DNA from: a virus | Lineage: Duplodnaviria > Heunggongvirae > Uroviricota > Caudoviricetes | Reading direction: 5' to 3' (one strand) | Length of the DNA stretch: 64,000 nt | Virus record (IMG/VR): IMGVR_UViG_2724679539_000005 | Location: 1 to 64,000 of that record | Shown: piece by piece, positions 1,216-33,407 of the stretch | Layout of the letters: every line of letters begins with the position of its first letter | Numbering within the stretch: position 1 is the stretch's first letter | Notes under the pieces: model-generated | What the model was told of the DNA's origin: nothing | What the model saw: the letters and a program-made list of their open reading frames with translations, nothing else | The model's database searches: none | Made by a program: the position numbers and the translations under genes

Positions 1216-1357
1216 CTGTATGAATAGACCGTGTTAAGCAATGGTAGTAGACTTATGTAGACGAACAAAGAATAGGCTATGTCTAGGCTGATCCCCGAAA
1301 ACCCGTACACCCCTACGGGCTGGCATAGCCGTCAGAATTAGGGGCGCGGGGTGGCGT

Positions 1358-3911: not shown

Positions 3912-4086
3912 GCCAACAGGAACACCACAACCACAAAAACGCTACAAAGATGCCCACGGAGCACTCGTTACTGTCGAAAGCGTGTCTCACAACCGAGTGA
4001 CGTTTTATCGCGACGGGTATCAATCGCCATGCGTACAACCGCTGGCACGTTTCATGAAGGAGTTCGCGGAGGTTAACAAATGCTAA
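3904..4086 (+). CDS. Hypothetical small protein
   Basis: 60-aa ORF coupled to the upstream gene. Confidence 0.3.
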   Translation: MSKPTGTPQPQKRYKDAHGALVTVESVSHNRVTFYRDGYQSPCVQPLARFMKEFAEVNKC

Positions 4087-4604
4087 CCGTCCAGAAGAAG
4101 ACATTTTCACTGGCAGGTATGTCGCCAAAATCCAGCAATATGACGGCAAAGTCAGGCATTAATACAGCAGATACAAGCAAAGTTTATCATTTGCTGGTGG
4201 TCGGAACGGATGCCTTAACCATACCAGAAATCTCGGGCGATGATATTAGCATTGAGAAGGTCAGCGGCTATGCCAGAGAATTTCTGGTCGTAGATGGCTT
4301 TCTCTGCTCGTGTAGTGACTCCACAAAAACCTTCGTCCACGCGCGTGACGTTAACGAAATGAGCGCGATGTACTGTGCTTCTGGTTCTTCCAATAGTGAG
4401 TTTTCGGAGTCCATAAAAAAGAGCTTGCCGTTATGCGGCAACACGGTTTATGGTTATAAGGCACCTCATAAAACGGGTGCCGGGATTGGCGTCCTGAAAA
4501 TTCTGAAGGCGACATATGACGCGCCGAGCGTCTTTTTTTATGTCGTAGGTCTGACTCACCCATTTTTTGGGCGTTGGTGTATAATCCAGCGCCTTTGTCA
4601 ATCA

Positions 4605-4690
4605 ATGGTGGCTCAGGCGGGGGCTTCTTCGGAAGCGCCGGTATCCTTCAGAGCCGGTTACGCCAACCCTGTCTGGGCTACCACCAGCGA
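4605..4690 (+). ncRNA. C4/CI-like antisense RNA (P1 C4, P4 CI type), copy A
   Basis: GGGCTTCTTCGGAAGCGCCGG hairpin with UUCG loop and CCGGTTACGCCAACC shared exactly with copy B at 32687; loop CCTTCAGA is complementary to TCTGAAGG in the RBS of the ORF at 4742. Confidence 0.5.
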
Positions 4691-4741
4691 AATTGGCGTT
4701 TCCGGTGGTAGCGTAACCTGCTATCTGAAGGAGGCTGCCAC

Positions 4742-4936
4742 ATGCTGGCTACTACCCCTACCCAAAAACCGCAATTTATCTGGATTATCGCCGCAGTTCG
4801 CCGCGATTGCCCGACAATTACCGCCAAAATTCATCATATTGCTGCCGAGTCTGAACGCGATGCTCGCCGTTCTCTGGTGCGCGATCACGTCTGCTTTTTT
4901 GCTGGTCGTATCCGCATGGAGGTGGCACATGATTAA
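4742..4936 (+). CDS. Hypothetical small protein, first gene after the antisense RNA
   Basis: Strong SD GAAGGAGG before ATG; SD overlaps predicted antisense target. Confidence 0.45.
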   Translation: MLATTPTQKPQFIWIIAAVRRDCPTITAKIHHIAAESERDARRSLVRDHVCFFAGRIRMEVAHD

Positions 4937-5147
4937 AACCTACGATGTGCATATGGATCCCCTCGAACGCACAAGCCAGATCATCACACTGACAGAAGTG
5001 ATTAACGACATTCTGGTGAGCAACTCTCCCTCACGAGACGAAAGACTGAAGGCGTTACTCGCGATATTGGATCTCGCCGTTCGTGACGTTCATTTCCTGC
5101 TGGAAGGTGGCGAAATGCCAGGAAAAACGGGGGCAACCAATGAATAA
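4929..5147 (+). CDS. Hypothetical small protein (72 aa)
   Basis: Internal ATG with GGAGGTGG SD inside a dubious 355-aa ORF. Confidence 0.35.
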   Translation: MIKTYDVHMDPLERTSQIITLTEVINDILVSNSPSRDERLKALLAILDLAVRDVHFLLEGGEMPGKTGATNE

Positions 5148-5334
5148 CTCAATTAATACCCCTCGCCTTACGTCCGCACTTCAATTAATCGAGCAAGCAG
5201 CGGCTGCCCTGGTTGCTGTCAGTCTTTCGGCTGAAGAAATGGACGCTGCTGATGTCGTGGATGCGATTAAAGCGTGCTCATCTTTGGTTAACGATGCCCG
5301 TGCCGAGCTGGTAATTCTTGGGGGTGAAAAATGA
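5140..5334 (+). CDS. Hypothetical small protein
   Basis: ATG MNNSINTPRL overlapping upstream stop. Confidence 0.4.
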   Translation: MNNSINTPRLTSALQLIEQAAAALVAVSLSAEEMDAADVVDAIKACSSLVNDARAELVILGGEK

Positions 5335-6419: not shown

Positions 6420-8771
6420 ATGCGAAACATTGATCTTATCCGTCAGGTTATCAGTGCGTCTGAAAACAACTGGCCTCATGTGCTGGGCTGCCTGAACATA
6501 AATGTCCCTGACTCTCCGCGCCGTCATGCTCCCTGCCCTGCATGTGGGGGCAAAGATCGATTCCGGTTCGACGACAACGGGCGCGGTAGCTTCATCTGTA
6601 ATCAGTGCGGCGCTGGTGATGGGCTGGATTTAATTAAACGCGTAAATAACTGCGACACAACAGAGGCGGCGCTTCTTGCCGCTGATGTTCTGGGTATTGA
6701 TTACCGGACAACGGAAACACCAGAAGCCACCAGCCAGAAACGGGAACAACTGGAAACCGAGCGCCAGCAACGCGAACAGGAGCGCCTGAAAAGGGCAGAG
6801 AAGGACGAACAACAAAGACGGGATACGTTTTCCCGTCAGTTTGATGACATGCGCAGAAAGGCTGTAAACGGCAAATCTGATTATCTGTTTGCGAAAGGGG
6901 TAGGTGATTTTACATTCCCTGTGTTGCCCGATGGATCTCTGTTGCTGGCGCTGGTGGATAAATCCGGCGCAGTCACAGCAGCACAGACTATTACCTCACA
7001 TGGTGAAAAAAGACTCCTGACAGGTTCAGCAAAGCGAGGGGCATATCACGCCATAAACGCACAGAAACGACCTCACAGCATCATAATTGCTGAGGGGGTG
7101 GCTACCGCCCTGTCGTGCCATTTAATTCGCCCTGACGCAATGACAGTGGCAGCAATCGACGCTGGCAACCTGTTGCCAGTAGCGGAAGTCATGCGCAGAA
7201 CATATCCACAGGCACAAATCATCATTGCCGCAGATAACGATCACCAGCAAGGAAACTCCGAAAGTGGAGGGATCAACACGGGGAAAGATGCCGCAGAGAG
7301 GGCCGCTATTTCCGTAGCTGGCTGGGTGTCTCTGCCACCGACTGACTATAAAGCCGACTGGAACGACTATCACCAACAACACGGGCTGGCGGCAGCCACA
7401 GCAGCATTTAAAGATTCGATGTACCAGCCACGGGGGAAAGGGGCGCAGGTGAAAAATCACAAACAGTCAGTCGGGGCGCTGAATGAGATCAGTTCTGGCG
7501 AGGTGTTAAGCGATGATGAAATTGCTGTCCTCGAAGAAATCAACCGGACGTTTACGCATGTCACCATCGGCGGGAAACACAAGGTGGTGTCGCTAAAGCC
7601 TTCTCAAACCGGCGGTGTATCGCACGTTTTCGAGGATTTATCACAATTTCAGCATTATTTTCATCATAAACCGAGAGTCGCCAGAAAGCTGGCGGGATCG
7701 GCGTGGCTGTCATGGAGTGGGAAGAACTACAAGCCAGGAGGCGTAGGATTTTATCCAGTACCAGACAAATGCCCTGACGATGTTTTTAATCTGTATGAGG
7801 GGCTGGCACTGGAACCAATTGAAGGAGATTGCACGGTATACCTTAATCACCTGTTGCAGGTTGTCTGTGCCGGTAATGAAGAGGCATACCAATATCTTAT
7901 CCAGTGGATGGCGCACATTATCCAAAAGCCTGATGAAAAACCGTCCGTGGCAATCGTGATGAAATCTGTCCCGGGCACAGGGAAAGGCACAACGGTTAAA
8001 CCGCTGCTGCAAATACTGGGGCAGTACGCCGCCCACATTAACGGGGCGGGACATATTTCAGGGCGCTTCAATTCAATACTTGCTAACAAGCTACTGGTAT
8101 TTGCTGACGAAGTGACGATCCACAAGCCGTCTGAAGCTGACAGACTTAAAGCGATTATTAGCGAACCGACGTTTAACCTTGAGCGCAAGGGAATTGATGC
8201 TGAACCAATGCCGAATTTTGCCCGGTTGATATTTGCCAGTAACAGCACACAGGTATTACAGGCAGGGATAAGAGAGCGCCGCTATCTCGTGCTTGAGCCA
8301 TCTCCTGAAAAAGCACAGAGCCGGGAGTATTTTGATCGGCTGTACAGTTGGCTTAATGATGGCGGTGCCGCAAAGTTGCTTTGGCATCTTAAAGGGGTGG
8401 ATCTCTCAGGTTTTGACCCTCAACGAGCGCCACAGACCGATGCCTTACGTGAAGAAATCTTGCTGGGGCTGTCTGGCGTTGAATTGTTTCTTTATGGCGA
8501 GCTAATCAATGAACCTCCGTTTAATGGCGAAGTCCGTTTGTTTGCAAAGGATATGGTTAGTCGATTTGTAGCGTGGTCGCTTGAGCGTGGGGAAAAGCTT
8601 AAAGAACCAGCTGCCAGATCACTACTGGGTAAATCACTTGCACAAATGGGGCTGGTGAAGCATGGAAGACCAGACCGAGGGAATGGCGTGTTCTACGAAC
8701 TACCAGAGGTCGGAGTTCTACAGGCTGCGTTTGCCCGTCTGATCGGTATGGGGGGTTATGATGTTTTTTAA
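6420..8771 (+). CDS. P4 alpha-type primase/helicase
   Basis: N-terminal zinc-binding CPACGG..CNQCG, primase region, P-loop VPGTGKGT (D5/P4 alpha helicase type). Confidence 0.85.
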   Translation: MRNIDLIRQVISASENNWPHVLGCLNINVPDSPRRHAPCPACGGKDRFRFDDNGRGSFICNQCGAGDGLDLIKRVNNCDTTEAALLAADVLGIDYRTTETPEATSQKREQLETERQQREQERLKRAEKDEQQRRDTFSRQFDDMRRKAVNGKSDYLFAKGVGDFTFPVLPDGSLLLALVDKSGAVTAAQTITSHGEKRLLTGSAKRGAYHAINAQKRPHSIIIAEGVATALSCHLIRPDAMTVAAIDAGNLLPVAEVMRRTYPQAQIIIAADNDHQQGNSESGGINTGKDAAERAAISVAGWVSLPPTDYKADWNDYHQQHGLAAATAAFKDSMYQPRGKGAQVKNHKQSVGALNEISSGEVLSDDEIAVLEEINRTFTHVTIGGKHKVVSLKPSQTGGVSHVFEDLSQFQHYFHHKPRVARKLAGSAWLSWSGKNYKPGGVGFYPVPDKCPDDVFNLYEGLALEPIEGDCTVYLNHLLQVVCAGNEEAYQYLIQWMAHIIQKPDEKPSVAIVMKSVPGTGKGTTVKPLLQILGQYAAHINGAGHISGRFNSILANKLLVFADEVTIHKPSEADRLKAIISEPTFNLERKGIDAEPMPNFARLIFASNSTQVLQAGIRERRYLVLEPSPEKAQSREYFDRLYSWLNDGGAAKLLWHLKGVDLSGFDPQRAPQTDALREEILLGLSGVELFLYGELINEPPFNGEVRLFAKDMVSRFVAWSLERGEKLKEPAARSLLGKSLAQMGLVKHGRPDRGNGVFYELPEVGVLQAAFARLIGMGGYDVF

Positions 8772-10507: not shown

Positions 10508-10681
10508 ATGGCTATTTCAGTAAAGCCAGTATTGATAAGTGAGAAGCAAATGGAAGCGATAAAGAAAATTCAGGAGGAGCAGCGTAAAAAATCAGAGGTA
10601 GGAGTTGCGCCAACGATCCACGAAATTGCTCGGGGATTAATGGATAAGGCGCTGGCTTACACTTTAACTGGACGTGGGTAA
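10508..10681 (+). CDS. Small protein (57 aa), possibly YlcI/YnfO-like prophage protein
   Basis: ATG with AAGGGGG SD; product MAISVKPVLISEKQMEAIKKIQEEQRKK; not in supplied ORF track (under 60 aa). Confidence 0.35.
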   Translation: MAISVKPVLISEKQMEAIKKIQEEQRKKSEVGVAPTIHEIARGLMDKALAYTLTGRG

Positions 10682-10685
10682 ATTT

Positions 10686-12029
10686 ATGGCTACGTGGCAA
10701 CAGGGTATTAATTCTGGTGGTTTTCTGGCTGGCATCGGTGCGCAAAATGAGAATGCGCCAAAGGCAAGCGACATTAACGCAACGCTTGGTCTGATCCGCG
10801 AAAACAATGAACTGGCTCGCTCAGGTGCAAATAACGTTGCTCTGACAGGTCTTCGTGGTCTGGCTGGAGTTGCTGACATTTATAAGCAGCAGCAACAGCA
10901 GGAACGTAAAGCGGCATTCCAGAAAGGTTATGCAGATGCTTATGCGTCCGGTGACAGGGAGCAGATGCGTAATCTTATTACAGCATTCCCAGAAGAGTTT
11001 GAGGAAGTCCGTAAAGGGATGAGTTATGTCGATGATGCTCAAAGGGATGATTATGGCAATCTGGCGCTCAAAGCACAGGTAGCCTCATCGCTTGGTCAGG
11101 GCGCATTTGGCAGGTTCATGATGGATAATGAGCAGGAGATGCGTCGTTTAGGTATCCCTCCAGAAACTATTGCTGAAATGCAGGTTAATGACCCGCAGGG
11201 CTTCCAGCATTTCGCAGGTAATCTGGCGCTGTTTTCTCTCGGTCATGAGAAGTATTTCGATATCAAAGATCAAATGGAAGGTCGTCGACTTGAGCAAGGG
11301 CGACTGGATGAAAGTATGCGTCAGGCTGACATGGAGAACGCGAGAGGATGGGCAAATATCCAGAACGCTCAACTAGACAGGGCTCAGCGAGCACAAATTC
11401 ACTCAGATGAGATGGGATTGAAGCTAATGGAGCTGGGGCAAAAAGGTAAGCCGTCAGCAGACTTAATTAAGGGATTAAATTCTGACATTACCAATTTTGG
11501 CAAAAATTATAACTCTGTCAGAGCGGCGGCAAACTCTCTGCAAGCCCTTAGCAAGGTAAATACTGGCGCTGCCCAACTTGGGATTATCTTCAACTACATG
11601 AAATCTCTTGACCCGCAGTCAGTCGTTCGTGAAGGCGAACAGGTTCAGGTAATGCGGTCTGATGGCATATGGGGACAAATCAAAGGATACATAGACCAGC
11701 TTAATGCTGGAAACGGCCTGTCGCAGGAGGCAAAGGATAACATTGTTAACGCCGCAAAAATCAACGCCAATGCTATGGGGCAGCAGTTTAACCAGCAGGT
11801 TGACGAGTATCTCGATACATATGGAGAAACTATTCCTCAGGGGCTAAGAAAAAGCCTTGAAAGAAGGAAAGCGAAGCTATTTGACGATGTTTCCGGGCAG
11901 CCTACATCACAGGCTGGCACTGGACAGGCAAAAGCGGCAACCGGAGGAATATCAGAAGGCGCAACGGCAACCAACCCTAAAACTGGTCAGAAAATCATTT
12001 ACAGGAACGGAAAATGGCAGCAAATGTAA
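10686..12029 (+). CDS. Hypothetical protein (about 450 aa), Gln/Ala/Asn-rich
   Basis: Long ORF; alternative GTG start at 10674. Confidence 0.6.
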   Translation: MATWQQGINSGGFLAGIGAQNENAPKASDINATLGLIRENNELARSGANNVALTGLRGLAGVADIYKQQQQQERKAAFQKGYADAYASGDREQMRNLITAFPEEFEEVRKGMSYVDDAQRDDYGNLALKAQVASSLGQGAFGRFMMDNEQEMRRLGIPPETIAEMQVNDPQGFQHFAGNLALFSLGHEKYFDIKDQMEGRRLEQGRLDESMRQADMENARGWANIQNAQLDRAQRAQIHSDEMGLKLMELGQKGKPSADLIKGLNSDITNFGKNYNSVRAAANSLQALSKVNTGAAQLGIIFNYMKSLDPQSVVREGEQVQVMRSDGIWGQIKGYIDQLNAGNGLSQEAKDNIVNAAKINANAMGQQFNQQVDEYLDTYGETIPQGLRKSLERRKAKLFDDVSGQPTSQAGTGQAKAATGGISEGATATNPKTGQKIIYRNGKWQQM

Positions 12030-32386: not shown

Positions 32387-32669
32387 GTGTTTTACTTCGA
32401 CAGCCAGAATTGGGAGTCTCTATTCGTCTGGCGGCTAAAGGTGATATGGAAATCGTTATGTTTTGGCCTGAGGTAGTTGTAACTGTTGTAGCAGCTATGG
32501 CTGTGATCATCATGGTGTCCATTTACTGGGGTTGACGACATGATTTATCCGGCGCTATATTCTGTGCGTTGCCGCAAAATCGGCACACGGGATTGGCGTC
32601 CCGGGATACTACTCAACGCATACCGCGTTAAGCGGTTTTTTTGTGCGCTAAGCACGGCTATGCCCAAAT

Positions 32670-32755
32670 TATGGTGGGCTGTGTGAGGGCTTCTTCGGAA
32701 GCGCCGGGTTTGAGTAGCCGGTTACGCCAACCTTACACAGTTCACCACCAGTCGA
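32670..32755 (+). ncRNA. C4/CI-like antisense RNA, copy B
   Basis: Same conserved scaffold as copy A; loop TTGAGTAG is complementary to CTACTCAA at codons 2-4 of the ant gene. Confidence 0.5.
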
Positions 32756-32798
32756 TTGGCGTCGTTGGTGGTGATGGTTAACCTGATGAGGTGATACT

Positions 32799-33407
32799 AT
32801 GACTACTCAATTAGCATTCCACAAAACGACGTTTACCCCGATTTGCCACAATAACAGAATTTGGCTTACTGCCACTGAAGTTGGTTTAGCACTGGAATAT
32901 GCGGACGATAAAGCAGTTCAGCGCATTTACTCTCGGCACTCAGATGAATTCACAGATATGATGACAAGGGTGGTCAAAGTGACCACCCCTCGTGGAATGC
33001 AGGAGTCTCGAGTATTTAGCCTTCGCGGAGCCCATTTGATCGCCATGTTTGCTCGTACTCCTGTGGCCAAAGAATTCCGCCGCTGGGTTCTGGATATTCT
33101 CGATCGAGAAGTTCAACAATCCCCAATCACAAAACAATTCACTGATAACGAACTTTGCACACTCGCCTGGTTATGGCGAGCAAGTGATACGATGTTAACC
33201 GCCTGCCAGAACGTTACGCCCCTTCTTCAGGTCGCAGAGCATCGCGAAGCAGGTAGATTCACTTCAATCGAACAAGAATATCCTCGGATACTCAACAGGG
33301 CGCGAGAAATCCTTGCCAGAGAAACGGCGCATGTAAAATTCCAACCGTGGCAGGATGATAAGTGGAGTCGTGTGTTACCATATTTCCGTCAGAATCTGTT
33401 GCAATAA
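32799..33407 (+). CDS. ant: Phage antirepressor (Bro-N/Ant family)
   Basis: N-terminal NRIWLTATEVGLALEY region typical of Bro-N; directly downstream of C4-like RNA as in P1 immI. Confidence 0.65.
   Translation: MTTQLAFHKTTFTPICHNNRIWLTATEVGLALEYADDKAVQRIYSRHSDEFTDMMTRVVKVTTPRGMQESRVFSLRGAHLIAMFARTPVAKEFRRWVLDILDREVQQSPITKQFTDNELCTLAWLWRASDTMLTACQNVTPLLQVAEHREAGRFTSIEQEYPRILNRAREILARETAHVKFQPWQDDKWSRVLPYFRQNLLQ

Follow-up and report, generated by a model that had tools for sequence, protein, structure and literature searches.

A P4-type seqA-CI-seqC cassette with a C4/CI-family RNA, very probably an immunity module, lies within an "ash family protein" reading frame of an E. coli satellite prophage

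Cassettes built around a C4/CI antisense RNA are already known from P4, from P1/P7 as C4 and from Gifsy-1 as IsrK/STnc1160. In P1 and P7, the a′ and b′ segments of C4 reportedly recognise repeated a and b targets located before and after c4, the target is said to overlap the ribosome-binding site (RBS) of icd, and C4 itself is said to be processed from the transcript that it controls. Excision of the C4 and CI RNAs in P1 and P4 is carried out by RNase P. For P4-like prophages, IsrK is equivalent to seqA and C4 to CI (PMC3632133). A passage on eta/kil that summarises Forti 1999 (PMC10111431) describes P4 eta as translated and as containing the CI RNA. In Gifsy-1, an isrK sRNA that has a terminator of its own is followed by the processed C4-like RNA STnc1160 and an antirepressor operon (isrK-orf45-anrP-isrJ), wherein translation of the first ORF is governed by alternative structures (PMC4825925).

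Here we describe a cassette of this kind at positions 4461 to 4741 of the window, by which we mean the whole 64,000-nt stretch of DNA that was analysed. Its arrangement follows the seqA-CI-seqC layout, and it very probably serves a P4-like (PICI-type) satellite prophage, located at tRNA-Thr by proBA in E. coli, as its immunity module, working as its homologues do. In RefSeq, the same stretch appears only as the coding sequence of an "ash family protein", which is a pseudogene in some relatives, and the RNA features are absent. The components of the cassette, and those of a second cassette in the same window, are listed in Table 1.

Table 1. Positions of the features discussed, numbered from the first nucleotide of the window.
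Feature	Position	Strand	Basis or remark
355-aa ORF, RefSeq "ash family protein"	4080-5147	+	eta-like translate-through ORF
isrK/seqA-like leader RNA	4461-4538	+	Rfam RF01394, 67.8 bits, gathering score 50
Target block a1 (UUGGCGU)	4486-4492	+	in loop of isrK hairpin 2
Target block b1 UCUGAAGG	4502-4509	+	inside isrK
Intrinsic terminator t1	stem 4518-4532, then T-run	+	terminator scan
C4/CI-like antisense RNA	4601-4688	+	Rfam RF01695, fold and covariation
C4 closing stem, 17 bp	4606-4622 with 4667-4683	+	
C4 hairpin 1, GCUUC-UUCG-GAAGC	4623-4636	+	
C4 hairpin 2, GCCGG/CCGGU	4637-4658	+	12-nt specificity loop b′ UAUCCUUCAGAG at 4642-4653
C4 junction block a′ (ACGCCAA)	4660-4666	+	single-stranded
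Third hairpin GCUACCACC/GGUGGUAGC	4677-4685 with 4704-4712	+	shows a2
Target block a2 (UUGGCGU)	4693-4699	+	loop of third hairpin
Target block b2 UCUGAAGGA	4724-4732	+	exact 9-nt complement of loop 4644-4652
Shine-Dalgarno GGAGG of icd/kil-like gene	4730-4734	+	first three bases overlapped by b2
Icd/Kil-like host cell-division inhibitor gene, 64 aa	4742-4936	+	NCBIfam NF033153 phage_ICD_like, E=3.7e-20
Separate 72-aa gene	4929-5147	+	own Shine-Dalgarno GGAGGTGG; ATG overlaps icd stop codon (ATGA)
Primase, end of replication operon	6420-8771		
Second cassette	32570-32810	+	lambdoid prophage; different immunity specificity
Second-cassette promoter TTGACG-18-TATATT	32532-32561	+	promoter scan
Second-cassette isrK	32570-32642	+	Rfam, 58.7 bits; a1 32593-32599, b1 32609-32616
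Second-cassette C4	32667-32752	+	RF01695, 74.8 bits; loop GUUUGAGUAG 32708-32717; a′ 32724-32730
Second-cassette hairpin 3 with a2	a2 32756-32762	+	
Second-cassette b2 CUACUCAA	32803-32810	+	over codons 2-4 of antirepressor gene
Antirepressor gene	32799-33407	+	Pfam Bro-N and P22_AR_C

A covariance-model scan identified a full-length match to the Rfam C4 family (model positions 1-87 of 87) with a score of 79.9 bits (E=4.8e-14; gathering score 45). The 88-nt RNA has a minimum free energy (MFE) of -46.4 kcal/mol (z = -4.8 relative to shuffles), and its MFE structure is the same as the Rfam structure, wherein a long closing stem surrounds two adjacent hairpins and a single-stranded junction. Among 40 distinct cassettes, 99.9% of the cells in this fold are paired, as against 33-49% in slid controls, and compensatory changes are found in 14 of the 27 pairs, although the GCCGG/CCGGT core, which the pattern scans demanded, and the Shine-Dalgarno GGAGGCTGCC, which one scan also demanded, are positions that cannot vary. 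All covariation counts given here are derived from related sequences, for which slid controls are fairer than shuffle controls because the latter overstate significance when sequences are related. The first pattern used for viral contigs was loose; approximately 64 of 120 loci passed the hairpin-1 filter as true C4 RNAs, and the others were discarded.

A sequence-only reading of this region had proposed a C4/CI-family antisense RNA spanning nucleotides 4605 to 4745, with a GC hairpin carrying a UUCG tetraloop, a second stem whose loop is complementary to the Shine-Dalgarno region of the ORF at 4742, and a third hairpin. The family assignment is borne out by the Rfam matches and by covariation, both within the fold and between each target and the loop or junction that it matches; thus, both the Rfam scan and the folding and covariation analysis that it had suggested as checks support it. 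The first two hairpins are present as proposed, with nucleotides 4644 to 4652 forming the exact complement of 4724 to 4732. The RNA itself, however, ends near nucleotide 4688. The third hairpin exists as a conserved stem (92.8% of cells paired; compensatory change in five pairs and 48 cells), but it belongs to the downstream element and not to C4. Its 5′ arm and the 3′ arm of the C4 closing stem use common nucleotides, so that the two helices are mutually exclusive on one molecule. The third hairpin is a target-presenting element of seqC rather than a part of the small RNA. The 17-bp closing stem was absent from the earlier description.

An isrK/seqA-like RNA precedes both C4 matches in the window. 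The upstream copy had been overlooked in the earlier reading. A promoter scan revealed no consensus sigma-70 promoter upstream of the first isrK. A GCTTGCC motif resembling a -35 element was aligned by eye with the matching region of P4, which we take to be PLE; the spacing differs. Between t1 and C4, a perfect TATAAT at nucleotides 4580 to 4585 was weighed as a dedicated C4 promoter, and the promoter scan found no -35 partner for it. The spacer that holds this TATAAT is not conserved across cassettes.

Both recognition segments of C4 have one target on either side of the RNA. The loop bases at 4644 to 4652 (UCCUUCAGA) are complementary to b2 over the Shine-Dalgarno sequence and pair with a second target copy, b1, within isrK, and the junction block a′ pairs with the blocks a1 and a2. 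The sequence TCTGAAGG occurs five times in the window, where 1.6 occurrences are expected, and three of the five fall within nucleotides 4502 to 4731; for the second cassette, CTACTCAA occurs three times in the 64 kb, each time within that cassette. Covariation over some 40 distinct cassettes is seen for all four pairings as well as for the C4 fold and for the third hairpin. The pairing of a′ with a2 is maintained in 97.9% of cells (79 compensatory cells), and that of b′ with b2 in 79.5% (96 compensatory cells). A complement of at least 7 nt to a cassette's own loop is present downstream in 88% of cassettes, versus 5% with foreign loops, and upstream in 63% of distinct cassettes, versus 9% with foreign loops. 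For the junction, the complement is found upstream in 95% and downstream in 98% of cassettes, versus 4-6% with foreign junctions. The upstream complements to a and b sit at fixed offsets (95% and 63% of distinct cassettes, respectively).

The first gene that would be under the control of the C4 RNA is the icd/kil-like gene, whose counterpart in a 98.5%-identical relative is annotated as Icd-like by PGAP. Homology with P4, P1/P7 and Gifsy-1 suggests how the module may work. A leader transcript would carry isrK/seqA, C4 and seqC, from which a C4 RNA of roughly 80 nt would be excised. By means of a′ and b′, this RNA is predicted to bind the matching blocks upstream, in isrK beside t1, and downstream, in the loop of the next hairpin and over the icd Shine-Dalgarno sequence. 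Such pairing would stop icd translation and favour early termination at t1 and, via Rho, farther downstream, and therefore the replication operon, which extends to the primase gene, is proposed to be off in the lysogen. We infer from the homologous systems that C4 would thus confer prophage immunity through repression of the downstream genes, with the specificity of immunity fixed by the b′ loop.

A different reading would confine C4 to action in cis, as a leader that sequesters the icd RBS and yields neither a stable trans-acting sRNA nor superinfection immunity. Indeed, when nucleotides 4601 to 4745 are folded as a single molecule, the b′ loop pairs with the Shine-Dalgarno region, and the long isrK-orf45 transcript of Gifsy-1 is translationally inactive (Hershko-Shalev 2016). 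However, a leader acting only in cis would have no need of the duplicate a and b targets upstream in isrK, yet these are conserved and covary. The tRNA-like closing stem is also retained, with a conserved CCA-containing 3′ end (...CACCACC(A) or ...ACCACCA), and stable processed RNAs are reportedly known from experiments in P4 (CI), P1 (C4) and Gifsy-1 (STnc1160). We consider exclusive cis action unlikely; cis and trans action of C4 are compatible with each other.

A further reading would have the cassette as a non-functional remnant in a prophage undergoing decay, conserved only through recent acquisition. Many P4-like prophages of E. coli are indeed cryptic, and the P4 late genes sid, psu and delta are not recognisable in the part of the element examined. 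This reading is very improbable given that both RNAs, t1, the four complementarity blocks, icd and the open eta-like frame are all intact, that the layout is retained with compensatory changes over many genera, and that nucleotides 4332 to 5005 are identical in a relative that diverges on both flanks. Strain Ec1120, which is 100% identical over nucleotides 4000 to 5200, carries neither the lambdoid prophage nor the DUF6387 gene.

The second cassette lies in this lambdoid prophage, upstream of an antirepressor gene. The claim that the C4 scaffold recurs near nucleotide 32687 proved correct. No reading frame is open across this second cassette, which carries stop codons in all three frames.

The first cassette is embedded in the 355-aa ORF. 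The ATG of this ORF overlaps the TAA stop codon of an upstream DUF4222 gene, and the frame then extends over isrK, C4 and seqC, passes through icd in the +1 frame and continues in frame into the 72-aa gene, which forms its C terminus. M284 does not vary among the homologues, and after it comes one of two alternative C-terminal modules. Amino acids 124 to 232, corresponding to nucleotides 4449 to 4775, match Pfam PF10554 (Ash) with 117.5 bits (cutoff 26), and this profile maps onto isrK, C4 and seqC both here and in P4 eta. PF10554 has served as an "epsilon" marker for P4-like satellites. It is distinct from P4 epsilon, which is PF25738.

Stop codons are almost absent from the reading frame. 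Frame 0 carries a single stop in 34 cassettes that represent many genera, whereas frames 1 and 2 carry 130 and 162, with the counts taken per segment and the unconserved leader and spacer included. A plain three-frame comparison of openness was dropped in favour of these counts as being unfair, since an ancestral stop in either of the other frames may persist in a conserved RNA segment. Of the cassettes whose ORF and icd are in different frames, 7 of 7 have an open icd +1 frame, versus 0 of 6 same-clade relatives wherein the ORF is in frame with icd. The length of the spacer modulo 3 gives a marginal result, with 9 of 16 distinct lengths in frame. The fact that an open frame is missing in about 4 of 13 icd-type cassettes of the viral set indicates that the translate-through ORF is not universal.

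Although the ORF matches the full PF10554 profile, codon-position diversity reveals no codon-level protein constraint on it, icd excepted. Over isrK, the spacer, C4 and seqC, the diversity is flat (0.24-0.47), and the ratios of position 3 to positions 1 and 2 range from 0.82 to 1.10. By comparison, a Rha-like control gene gives 0.36/0.26/0.54 and the adjacent icd gene 0.41/0.41/0.57, the latter a third-position excess with a ratio of 1.40. Being nearly stop-free without codon-level constraint, the 355-aa ORF behaves like P4 eta; it appears to be the counterpart of that frame, held open for ribosome run-through. Transcripts entering from the upstream alpA operon would be translated without a gap, through overlapping genes, into the eta-like ORF, and ribosomes crossing isrK, C4 and seqC would melt their structures and prevent termination. 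It is because of this melting that expression of the alpA operon is proposed to be insensitive to immunity.

The sequence-only reading had held that the 355-aa ORF is probably not one real gene. This stands insofar as the ORF is no conventional single protein gene, since it lacks a third-codon-position signature, is out of frame over icd and runs into the 72-aa gene, and since its Ash segment is what isrK, C4 and seqC yield on translation; what that reading did not anticipate is that the frame is kept stop-free. It had also set conservation of the ORF against the existence of the RNA, which is a false choice because both are true here: the RNA is real, and the frame is also kept open across genera.

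That the region is simply protein-coding, with a real Ash domain and incidental RNA-like structure, is scarcely credible, for against the PF10554 score, the RefSeq name, the nearly stop-free frame and the 413 homologous ORFs (in some, coverage is 98% and identity 49%) stand the flat diversity of the Ash region next to the codon signature of icd, peptide motifs that shift radically in step with RNA complementarity (from GIGVL/GYANP to GRENP/GILTP in P4), an RNA scaffold retained in the second cassette despite its stop codons, and Rfam scores for C4 and isrK that both lie far over their gathering thresholds. With respect to the run-through frame, we somewhat favour the possibility that the Ash family is no protein domain at all, and that it represents the forced translation of isrK-C4-seqC, open only so that running ribosomes neutralise the immunity RNAs. 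If so, the Ash ORF would be a sequence-independent, eta-like anti-immunity switch kept across Enterobacterales, with the +1 frame of icd held open even in variants in which the loss of 1 nt has moved the ORF. The experimental precedent is P4 eta, from 1999; new would be the generality of the arrangement, the missing amino-acid constraint and what follows for annotation.

The main value of these findings concerns annotation, in that an "ash family protein" coding sequence is really two Rfam-recognisable RNAs and their targets. Recognition of the cassette explains why phage annotations show "Ash domains" joined to Rha, antirepressor and Icd genes. It also yields the immunity specificity of the satellite from the b′ loop and the junction ACGCCAA, by which the satellite is expected to be heteroimmune both to P4 and to the lambdoid prophage of the same window. 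An open frame that lacks amino-acid constraint widens the P4 eta observation to a whole family and would provide a clean example of selection for being translated rather than for the product.

Among the known systems, Gifsy-1 has in its isrK-orf45-anrP-isrJ region the layout of the second cassette. Its published model has IsrK activating translation of the long transcript in trans, and leaves the role of STnc1160 open (PMC4825925). The C4 RNA of P1/P7 belongs to the same Rfam family as the RNA described here. In P1, a plasmid prophage, the controlled operon ends in the antirepressor gene ant, whereas the operon here is for satellite replication; the second cassette, upstream of a Bro-N/P22_AR_C antirepressor, is functionally nearer to P1.

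The closest likeness is to P4, which gives both Rfam matches, isrK and C4, in the same order and orientation. Shared with P4 are the isrK/seqA RNA with its terminator, the spacer, C4/CI, the hairpin with the a block, the b block over the Shine-Dalgarno sequence and an Icd/Kil-like gene of 64-65 aa. In both elements, the RNAs lie within a long ORF that is coupled to its upstream neighbour (P4 eta is 199 aa), and the module lies upstream of an operon that ends in an alpha-type primase. From t1 to C4, the spacer measures 62 nt here as against 107 nt in P4, and the upstream neighbours here are AntA and DUF4222 genes, whereas eta in P4 directly follows an alpA homologue. The spacing between the Shine-Dalgarno sequence and the ATG is 1 nt shorter than in P4, so that the eta-like ORF and icd are read in different frames, and because of this shift the 355-aa ORF runs on into the next gene. 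At the same positions, P4 has the a blocks UUCUCAC/GUGAGAA in place of the a′ sequence found here, and a b′ loop UAUCCUGUGAAG, pairing with UUCACAGG, in place of UAUCCUUCAGAG. Because both recognition blocks differ, P4 and the present element should not repress one another. The RNA described here is thus a real and well-supported instance of a kind already published, in the seqA-CI-seqC design of P4.

In phage P4-type immunity regions an isrK (seqA) element precedes a C4 (CI) RNA, and the sequence-only reading had proposed such an antisense RNA upstream of the ORF at 4742, here icd, a 64-aa Icd/Kil-like gene at 4742-4936(+). A window-wide Rfam scan at gathering thresholds, which returned five matches in total, bears this out. 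The cassette at ~4461-4741(+) (copy 1) matches both models, and the scaffold recurrence noticed near 32687 corresponds to a second C4 match within another cassette, at 32570-32810(+) (copy 2). The three hairpins described earlier are all present on reading 4300-5100, and the 88-nt C4 RNA folded alone (MFE -46.4 kcal/mol, z = -4.8) adopts a structure identical to that of Rfam, including an 8-nt junction. A perfect TATAAT hexamer (4580-4585) lies within the unconserved spacer separating the isrK terminator from C4; a promoter scan gave no -35 partner for it.

Coordinates of RNA features and recognition blocks (gathering scores in parentheses).
Feature	Position	Strand	Rfam score or sequence
int-alpA RNA (RF02996), between integrase gene and next ORF	1276-1343		46.7 bits
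isrK (RF01394), copy 1	4461-4538	+	67.8 bits (50)
C4 antisense RNA (RF01695), copy 1	4601-4688	+	79.9 bits (45)
C4 closing stem, 17 bp	4606-4622 with 4667-4683		
C4 hairpin 1	4623-4636		UUCG loop
C4 hairpin 2, 12-nt loop at 4642-4653	4637-4658		
isrK (RF01394), copy 2	32570-32642	+	58.7 bits (50)
C4 antisense RNA (RF01695), copy 2	32667-32752	+	74.8 bits (45)
Block b, C4 loop, copy 1	4642-4653		UAUCCUUCAGAG
Block b, target b1 in isrK tail, copy 1	4502-4509		UCUGAAGG
Block b, target b2 over Shine-Dalgarno, copy 1	4724-4732		UCUGAAGGA
Block b, copy 2	loop 32708-32717; b1 32609-32616; b2 32803-32810		loop GUUUGAGUAG with CUACUCAA
Block b, P4			loop UAUCCUGUGAAG with UUCACAGG(A)
Block a, C4 junction a', both copies	4660-4666; 32724-32730		ACGCCAA
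Block a, target a1 (loop of isrK hairpin 2), both copies	4486-4492; 32593-32599		UUGGCGU
Block a, target a2 (third-hairpin loop), both copies	4693-4699; 32756-32762		UUGGCGU
Block a, P4			junction UUCUCAC with targets GUGAGAA

Aligning copy 1, copy 2, and P4 side by side revealed a two-block recognition system, wherein the junction (a') and loop (b') of C4 each have a complement upstream in isrK and another downstream. The claimed complementarity between the C4 loop and the icd Shine-Dalgarno region is exact: nucleotides 4644-4652 are the complement of b2, which overlaps the GGAGG of the ORF starting at 4742. The 64-kb window contains five copies of the 8-mer TCTGAAGG (1.6 expected), three of them inside 4502-4731; its copy-2 equivalent, CTACTCAA, is found three times, always within its own cassette. 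The a block is common to both copies, and the b loop of copy 2 is distinct. Because the third hairpin carries target a2, it is not a domain of the small RNA, as had been considered, and instead displays the first half of seqC.

Complementarity between these blocks is largely cassette-specific. A pattern scan of viral contigs with a hairpin-1 filter yielded 41 distinct loop/junction combinations, for which complements of at least 7 nt were sought in own and foreign cassettes. A loop complement was present downstream, at a fixed offset, in 88% of own and 5% of foreign comparisons, and upstream in 63% and 9%; the corresponding values for the junction block were 98% and 4% downstream, and 95% and 6% upstream. 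The covariation anticipated among homologues is evident in a 40-cassette alignment, where slid-partner controls provide the fairer comparison because the sequences share ancestry, and where the GCCGG/CCGGT core is invariant by design of the search pattern. The Rfam C4 fold is paired in 99.9% of cells, with 14 compensatory pairs in 162 cells (slid controls 33-49%), and the third hairpin in 92.8%, with five compensatory pairs in 48 cells (controls mostly 32-58%). The a' x a2 interaction is paired in 97.9% of cells (79 compensatory; controls 36-47%) and b' x b2 in 79.5% (96 compensatory; controls 34-56%).

Nucleotides 4677-4685 (columns 78-86 of cassette alignment A1) serve both the C4 closing stem, as its 3' arm, and the third hairpin, as its 5' arm, and both pairings covary; indeed, columns 78-84 pair with the C4 5' arm and also with the third-hairpin 3' arm. 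The two structures are therefore alternatives on the unprocessed transcript, and the shared arm may act as a switch between C4 release and a2 presentation. This arm might be the counterpart of the P4 't4' site. The C4 RNA of P1/P7 is processed by RNase P. When 4601-4745 is folded as a single molecule, the C4 loop pairs with the Shine-Dalgarno in cis.

Copy 2 resides in a lambdoid prophage, 5' of a Bro-N/P22_AR_C antirepressor gene (32799-33407), with a good promoter match immediately 5' of its isrK. Its b2 target covers antirepressor codons 2-4 rather than the Shine-Dalgarno, and no open frame crosses the cassette, all three frames being closed.

Copy 1, by contrast with such closed frames, is traversed by a 355-aa ORF (4080-5147) that RefSeq labels 'ash family protein', whose ATG overlaps the TAA of a DUF4222 gene and follows a GGAGG by 8 nt. 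Its match to Pfam PF10554 (Phage_ASH; aa 124-232, nt 4449-4775) spans exactly isrK, spacer, C4, third hairpin, and seqC. In a 98.5%-identical relative, PGAP names the 64-aa ORF 'host cell division inhibitor Icd-like protein', an assignment that NCBIfam also gives to 4742-4936, and marks ash as a pseudogene despite an equally open ORF. A protein search recovered 413 ORFs of the 'ash family', many of them 320-375 aa long, from Escherichia, Klebsiella, Salmonella, and others. Their alignment has a weakly conserved N-terminus with many indels, a middle encoded by the RNA cassette, a conserved stretch corresponding to the icd +1 frame, and an invariant Met. This Met corresponds to the ATG at 4929, which overlaps the icd stop codon (ATGA), has a Shine-Dalgarno of its own, and is followed by either of two alternative modules; the C-terminal part is thus a distinct 72-aa gene joined on in frame.

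PF10554 appears in the literature on Stx phages as a domain of unknown function carried by Rha/Ash proteins (PMC8951638), and it has been used as an 'epsilon' marker for P4-like satellites (PMC8628076); P4 epsilon itself belongs to PF25738, not PF10554. In many lambdoid cassettes on viral contigs (L005, L012, L017, L034, L035, L045, L083, L111), the Ash frame continues in frame into a Rha/antirepressor gene (...EAAIMAT...), and the N-terminal part of annotated 'Rha/Ash' fusions is translated RNA cassette.

We examined frame openness with a species-level DNA-pattern scan (one genome per species, 83 loci, ~30 Enterobacterales genera), since called ORFs would bias such a test.

Stop codons by frame (34 distinct P4-type cassettes of identical geometry) and nucleotide diversity by codon position (26 cassettes).
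Segment	Stops, frame 0	Stops, frame 1	Stops, frame 2	Diversity, positions 1/2/3
Leader	1	33	55	0.60/0.55/0.58
isrK	0	19	33	0.24/0.23/0.25
Spacer	0	42	20	0.41/0.45/0.47
C4	0	26	21	0.30/0.30/0.25
Third hairpin + seqC	0	10	33	0.31/0.31/0.31
icd				0.41/0.41/0.57

Among the six segments only icd carries a coding signature, comparable in kind to a Rha-like control gene (0.36/0.26/0.54), and no codon-level protein constraint was found on the PF10554 segment in these 26 cassettes. The suspicion that the 355-aa ORF is not one real gene holds insofar as flat codon-position diversity speaks against a conventional protein gene, but its frame is strongly kept open, with a single frame-0 stop. Judged from these patterns, the Ash 'domain' is evidently the shadow of an RNA, and the frame is under strong selection for openness, as expected of a translate-through ORF like P4 eta.

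The reading frame relative to icd depends on spacing. In the window the Shine-Dalgarno-to-ATG distance is 1 nt shorter (CCACATG versus CCATCATG), which places the 355-aa ORF in the icd +1 frame; this variant (CCACATGCTG versus CCATCATGGC) occurs at 4735-4745 and in cassettes L135, L142, L164, L196, and L100. The +1 frame is open throughout icd in 7/7 short-spacing cassettes, usually continuing into the next gene, versus 0/6 in-frame relatives of the same FIWIIAAVRRD clade and 15/34 cassettes overall. The frame is closed in about 4 of 13 icd-type viral cassettes, so a translate-through ORF is not found in every cassette.

The window comes from E. coli. Three complete genomes match 4000-5200 at 100% identity, and ~480 genomes contain this stretch at a coverage of at least 80%. 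In Ec1120, which matches 4000-5200 at 100% identity, the element lies at tRNA-Thr, adjoining proBA, with the order integrase, AlpA-type regulator, hypothetical, AntA/AntB antirepressor, DUF4222, 'ash family protein', several small ORFs, and Toprim/DUF5906 primase. The element is a P4-like or PICI-type satellite. From alpA through the primase all neighboring genes overlap or abut, and without the 355-aa ORF this chain would leave ~660 nt untranslated. The window also holds a 293-aa DUF6387 ORF (1358-2239) between integrase and alpA, which may be variable cargo or a hotspot gene; it is missing from the Ec1120 element, where int directly precedes the alpA-type gene. A 451-aa ORF (10674-12029), ~2 kb downstream of the satellite primase, matches Pfam Inj_translocase (P22 injectosome DNA/protein translocase; E=2.5e-73), unexpected in a P4-like element.

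The mechanism we propose is drawn largely from homology to known systems. In the lysogen, the leader transcript would yield a stable C4/CI RNA whose a' and b' would pair with a1/b1 beside terminator t1 and with a2/b2 at the icd ribosome-binding site. Such pairing would increase termination and block icd translation, leaving the replication operon silent, with immunity specificity determined by the b' loop. Upon induction via the upstream operon, coupled translation of the eta-like ORF would melt isrK, C4, and seqC and suppress termination.

P4 (NC_001609, here L003) offers the closest comparison, as both Rfam models match it in the same order. Its eta frame, 199 aa long, begins at an ATG that overlaps the stop codon of orf88 (L003:1380) and stays open until the stop codon of kil, and PF10554 covers aa 22-146 (L003 1443-1817), likewise from isrK to seqC; the Icd-like domain follows in frame, whereas the window ORF runs in the +1 frame of icd. 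A summary of Forti 1999 (PMC10111431) describes kil nested with eta, eta coupled to an alpA homologue, and eta translation preventing termination. CI, seqA, and seqC of P4 and the equivalence of IsrK with seqA and C4 with CI in P4-like prophages (PMC3632133), as well as the Gifsy-1 IsrK/STnc1160 locus (PMC4825925), have been published. Because the C4 family, the pairing of isrK with C4 in P4-like prophages, and the RNA-in-ORF arrangement are on record, the cassette counts as already known. What is modestly new is that evidence from across the family points to selection on the eta/Ash ORF for openness, with its amino-acid sequence unconstrained, and that PF10554 can in consequence be seen as an essentially RNA-derived profile. 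At the level of sequence, copy 1 shows the features that mark the Rfam C4 family and a P4-type immunity region, apart from a consensus promoter upstream of isrK, for which the promoter scan gave no match, and because its b loop is unlike that of P4 or copy 2 and its a block unlike that of P4, it is predicted to represent a new immunity specificity rather than a new kind of system.
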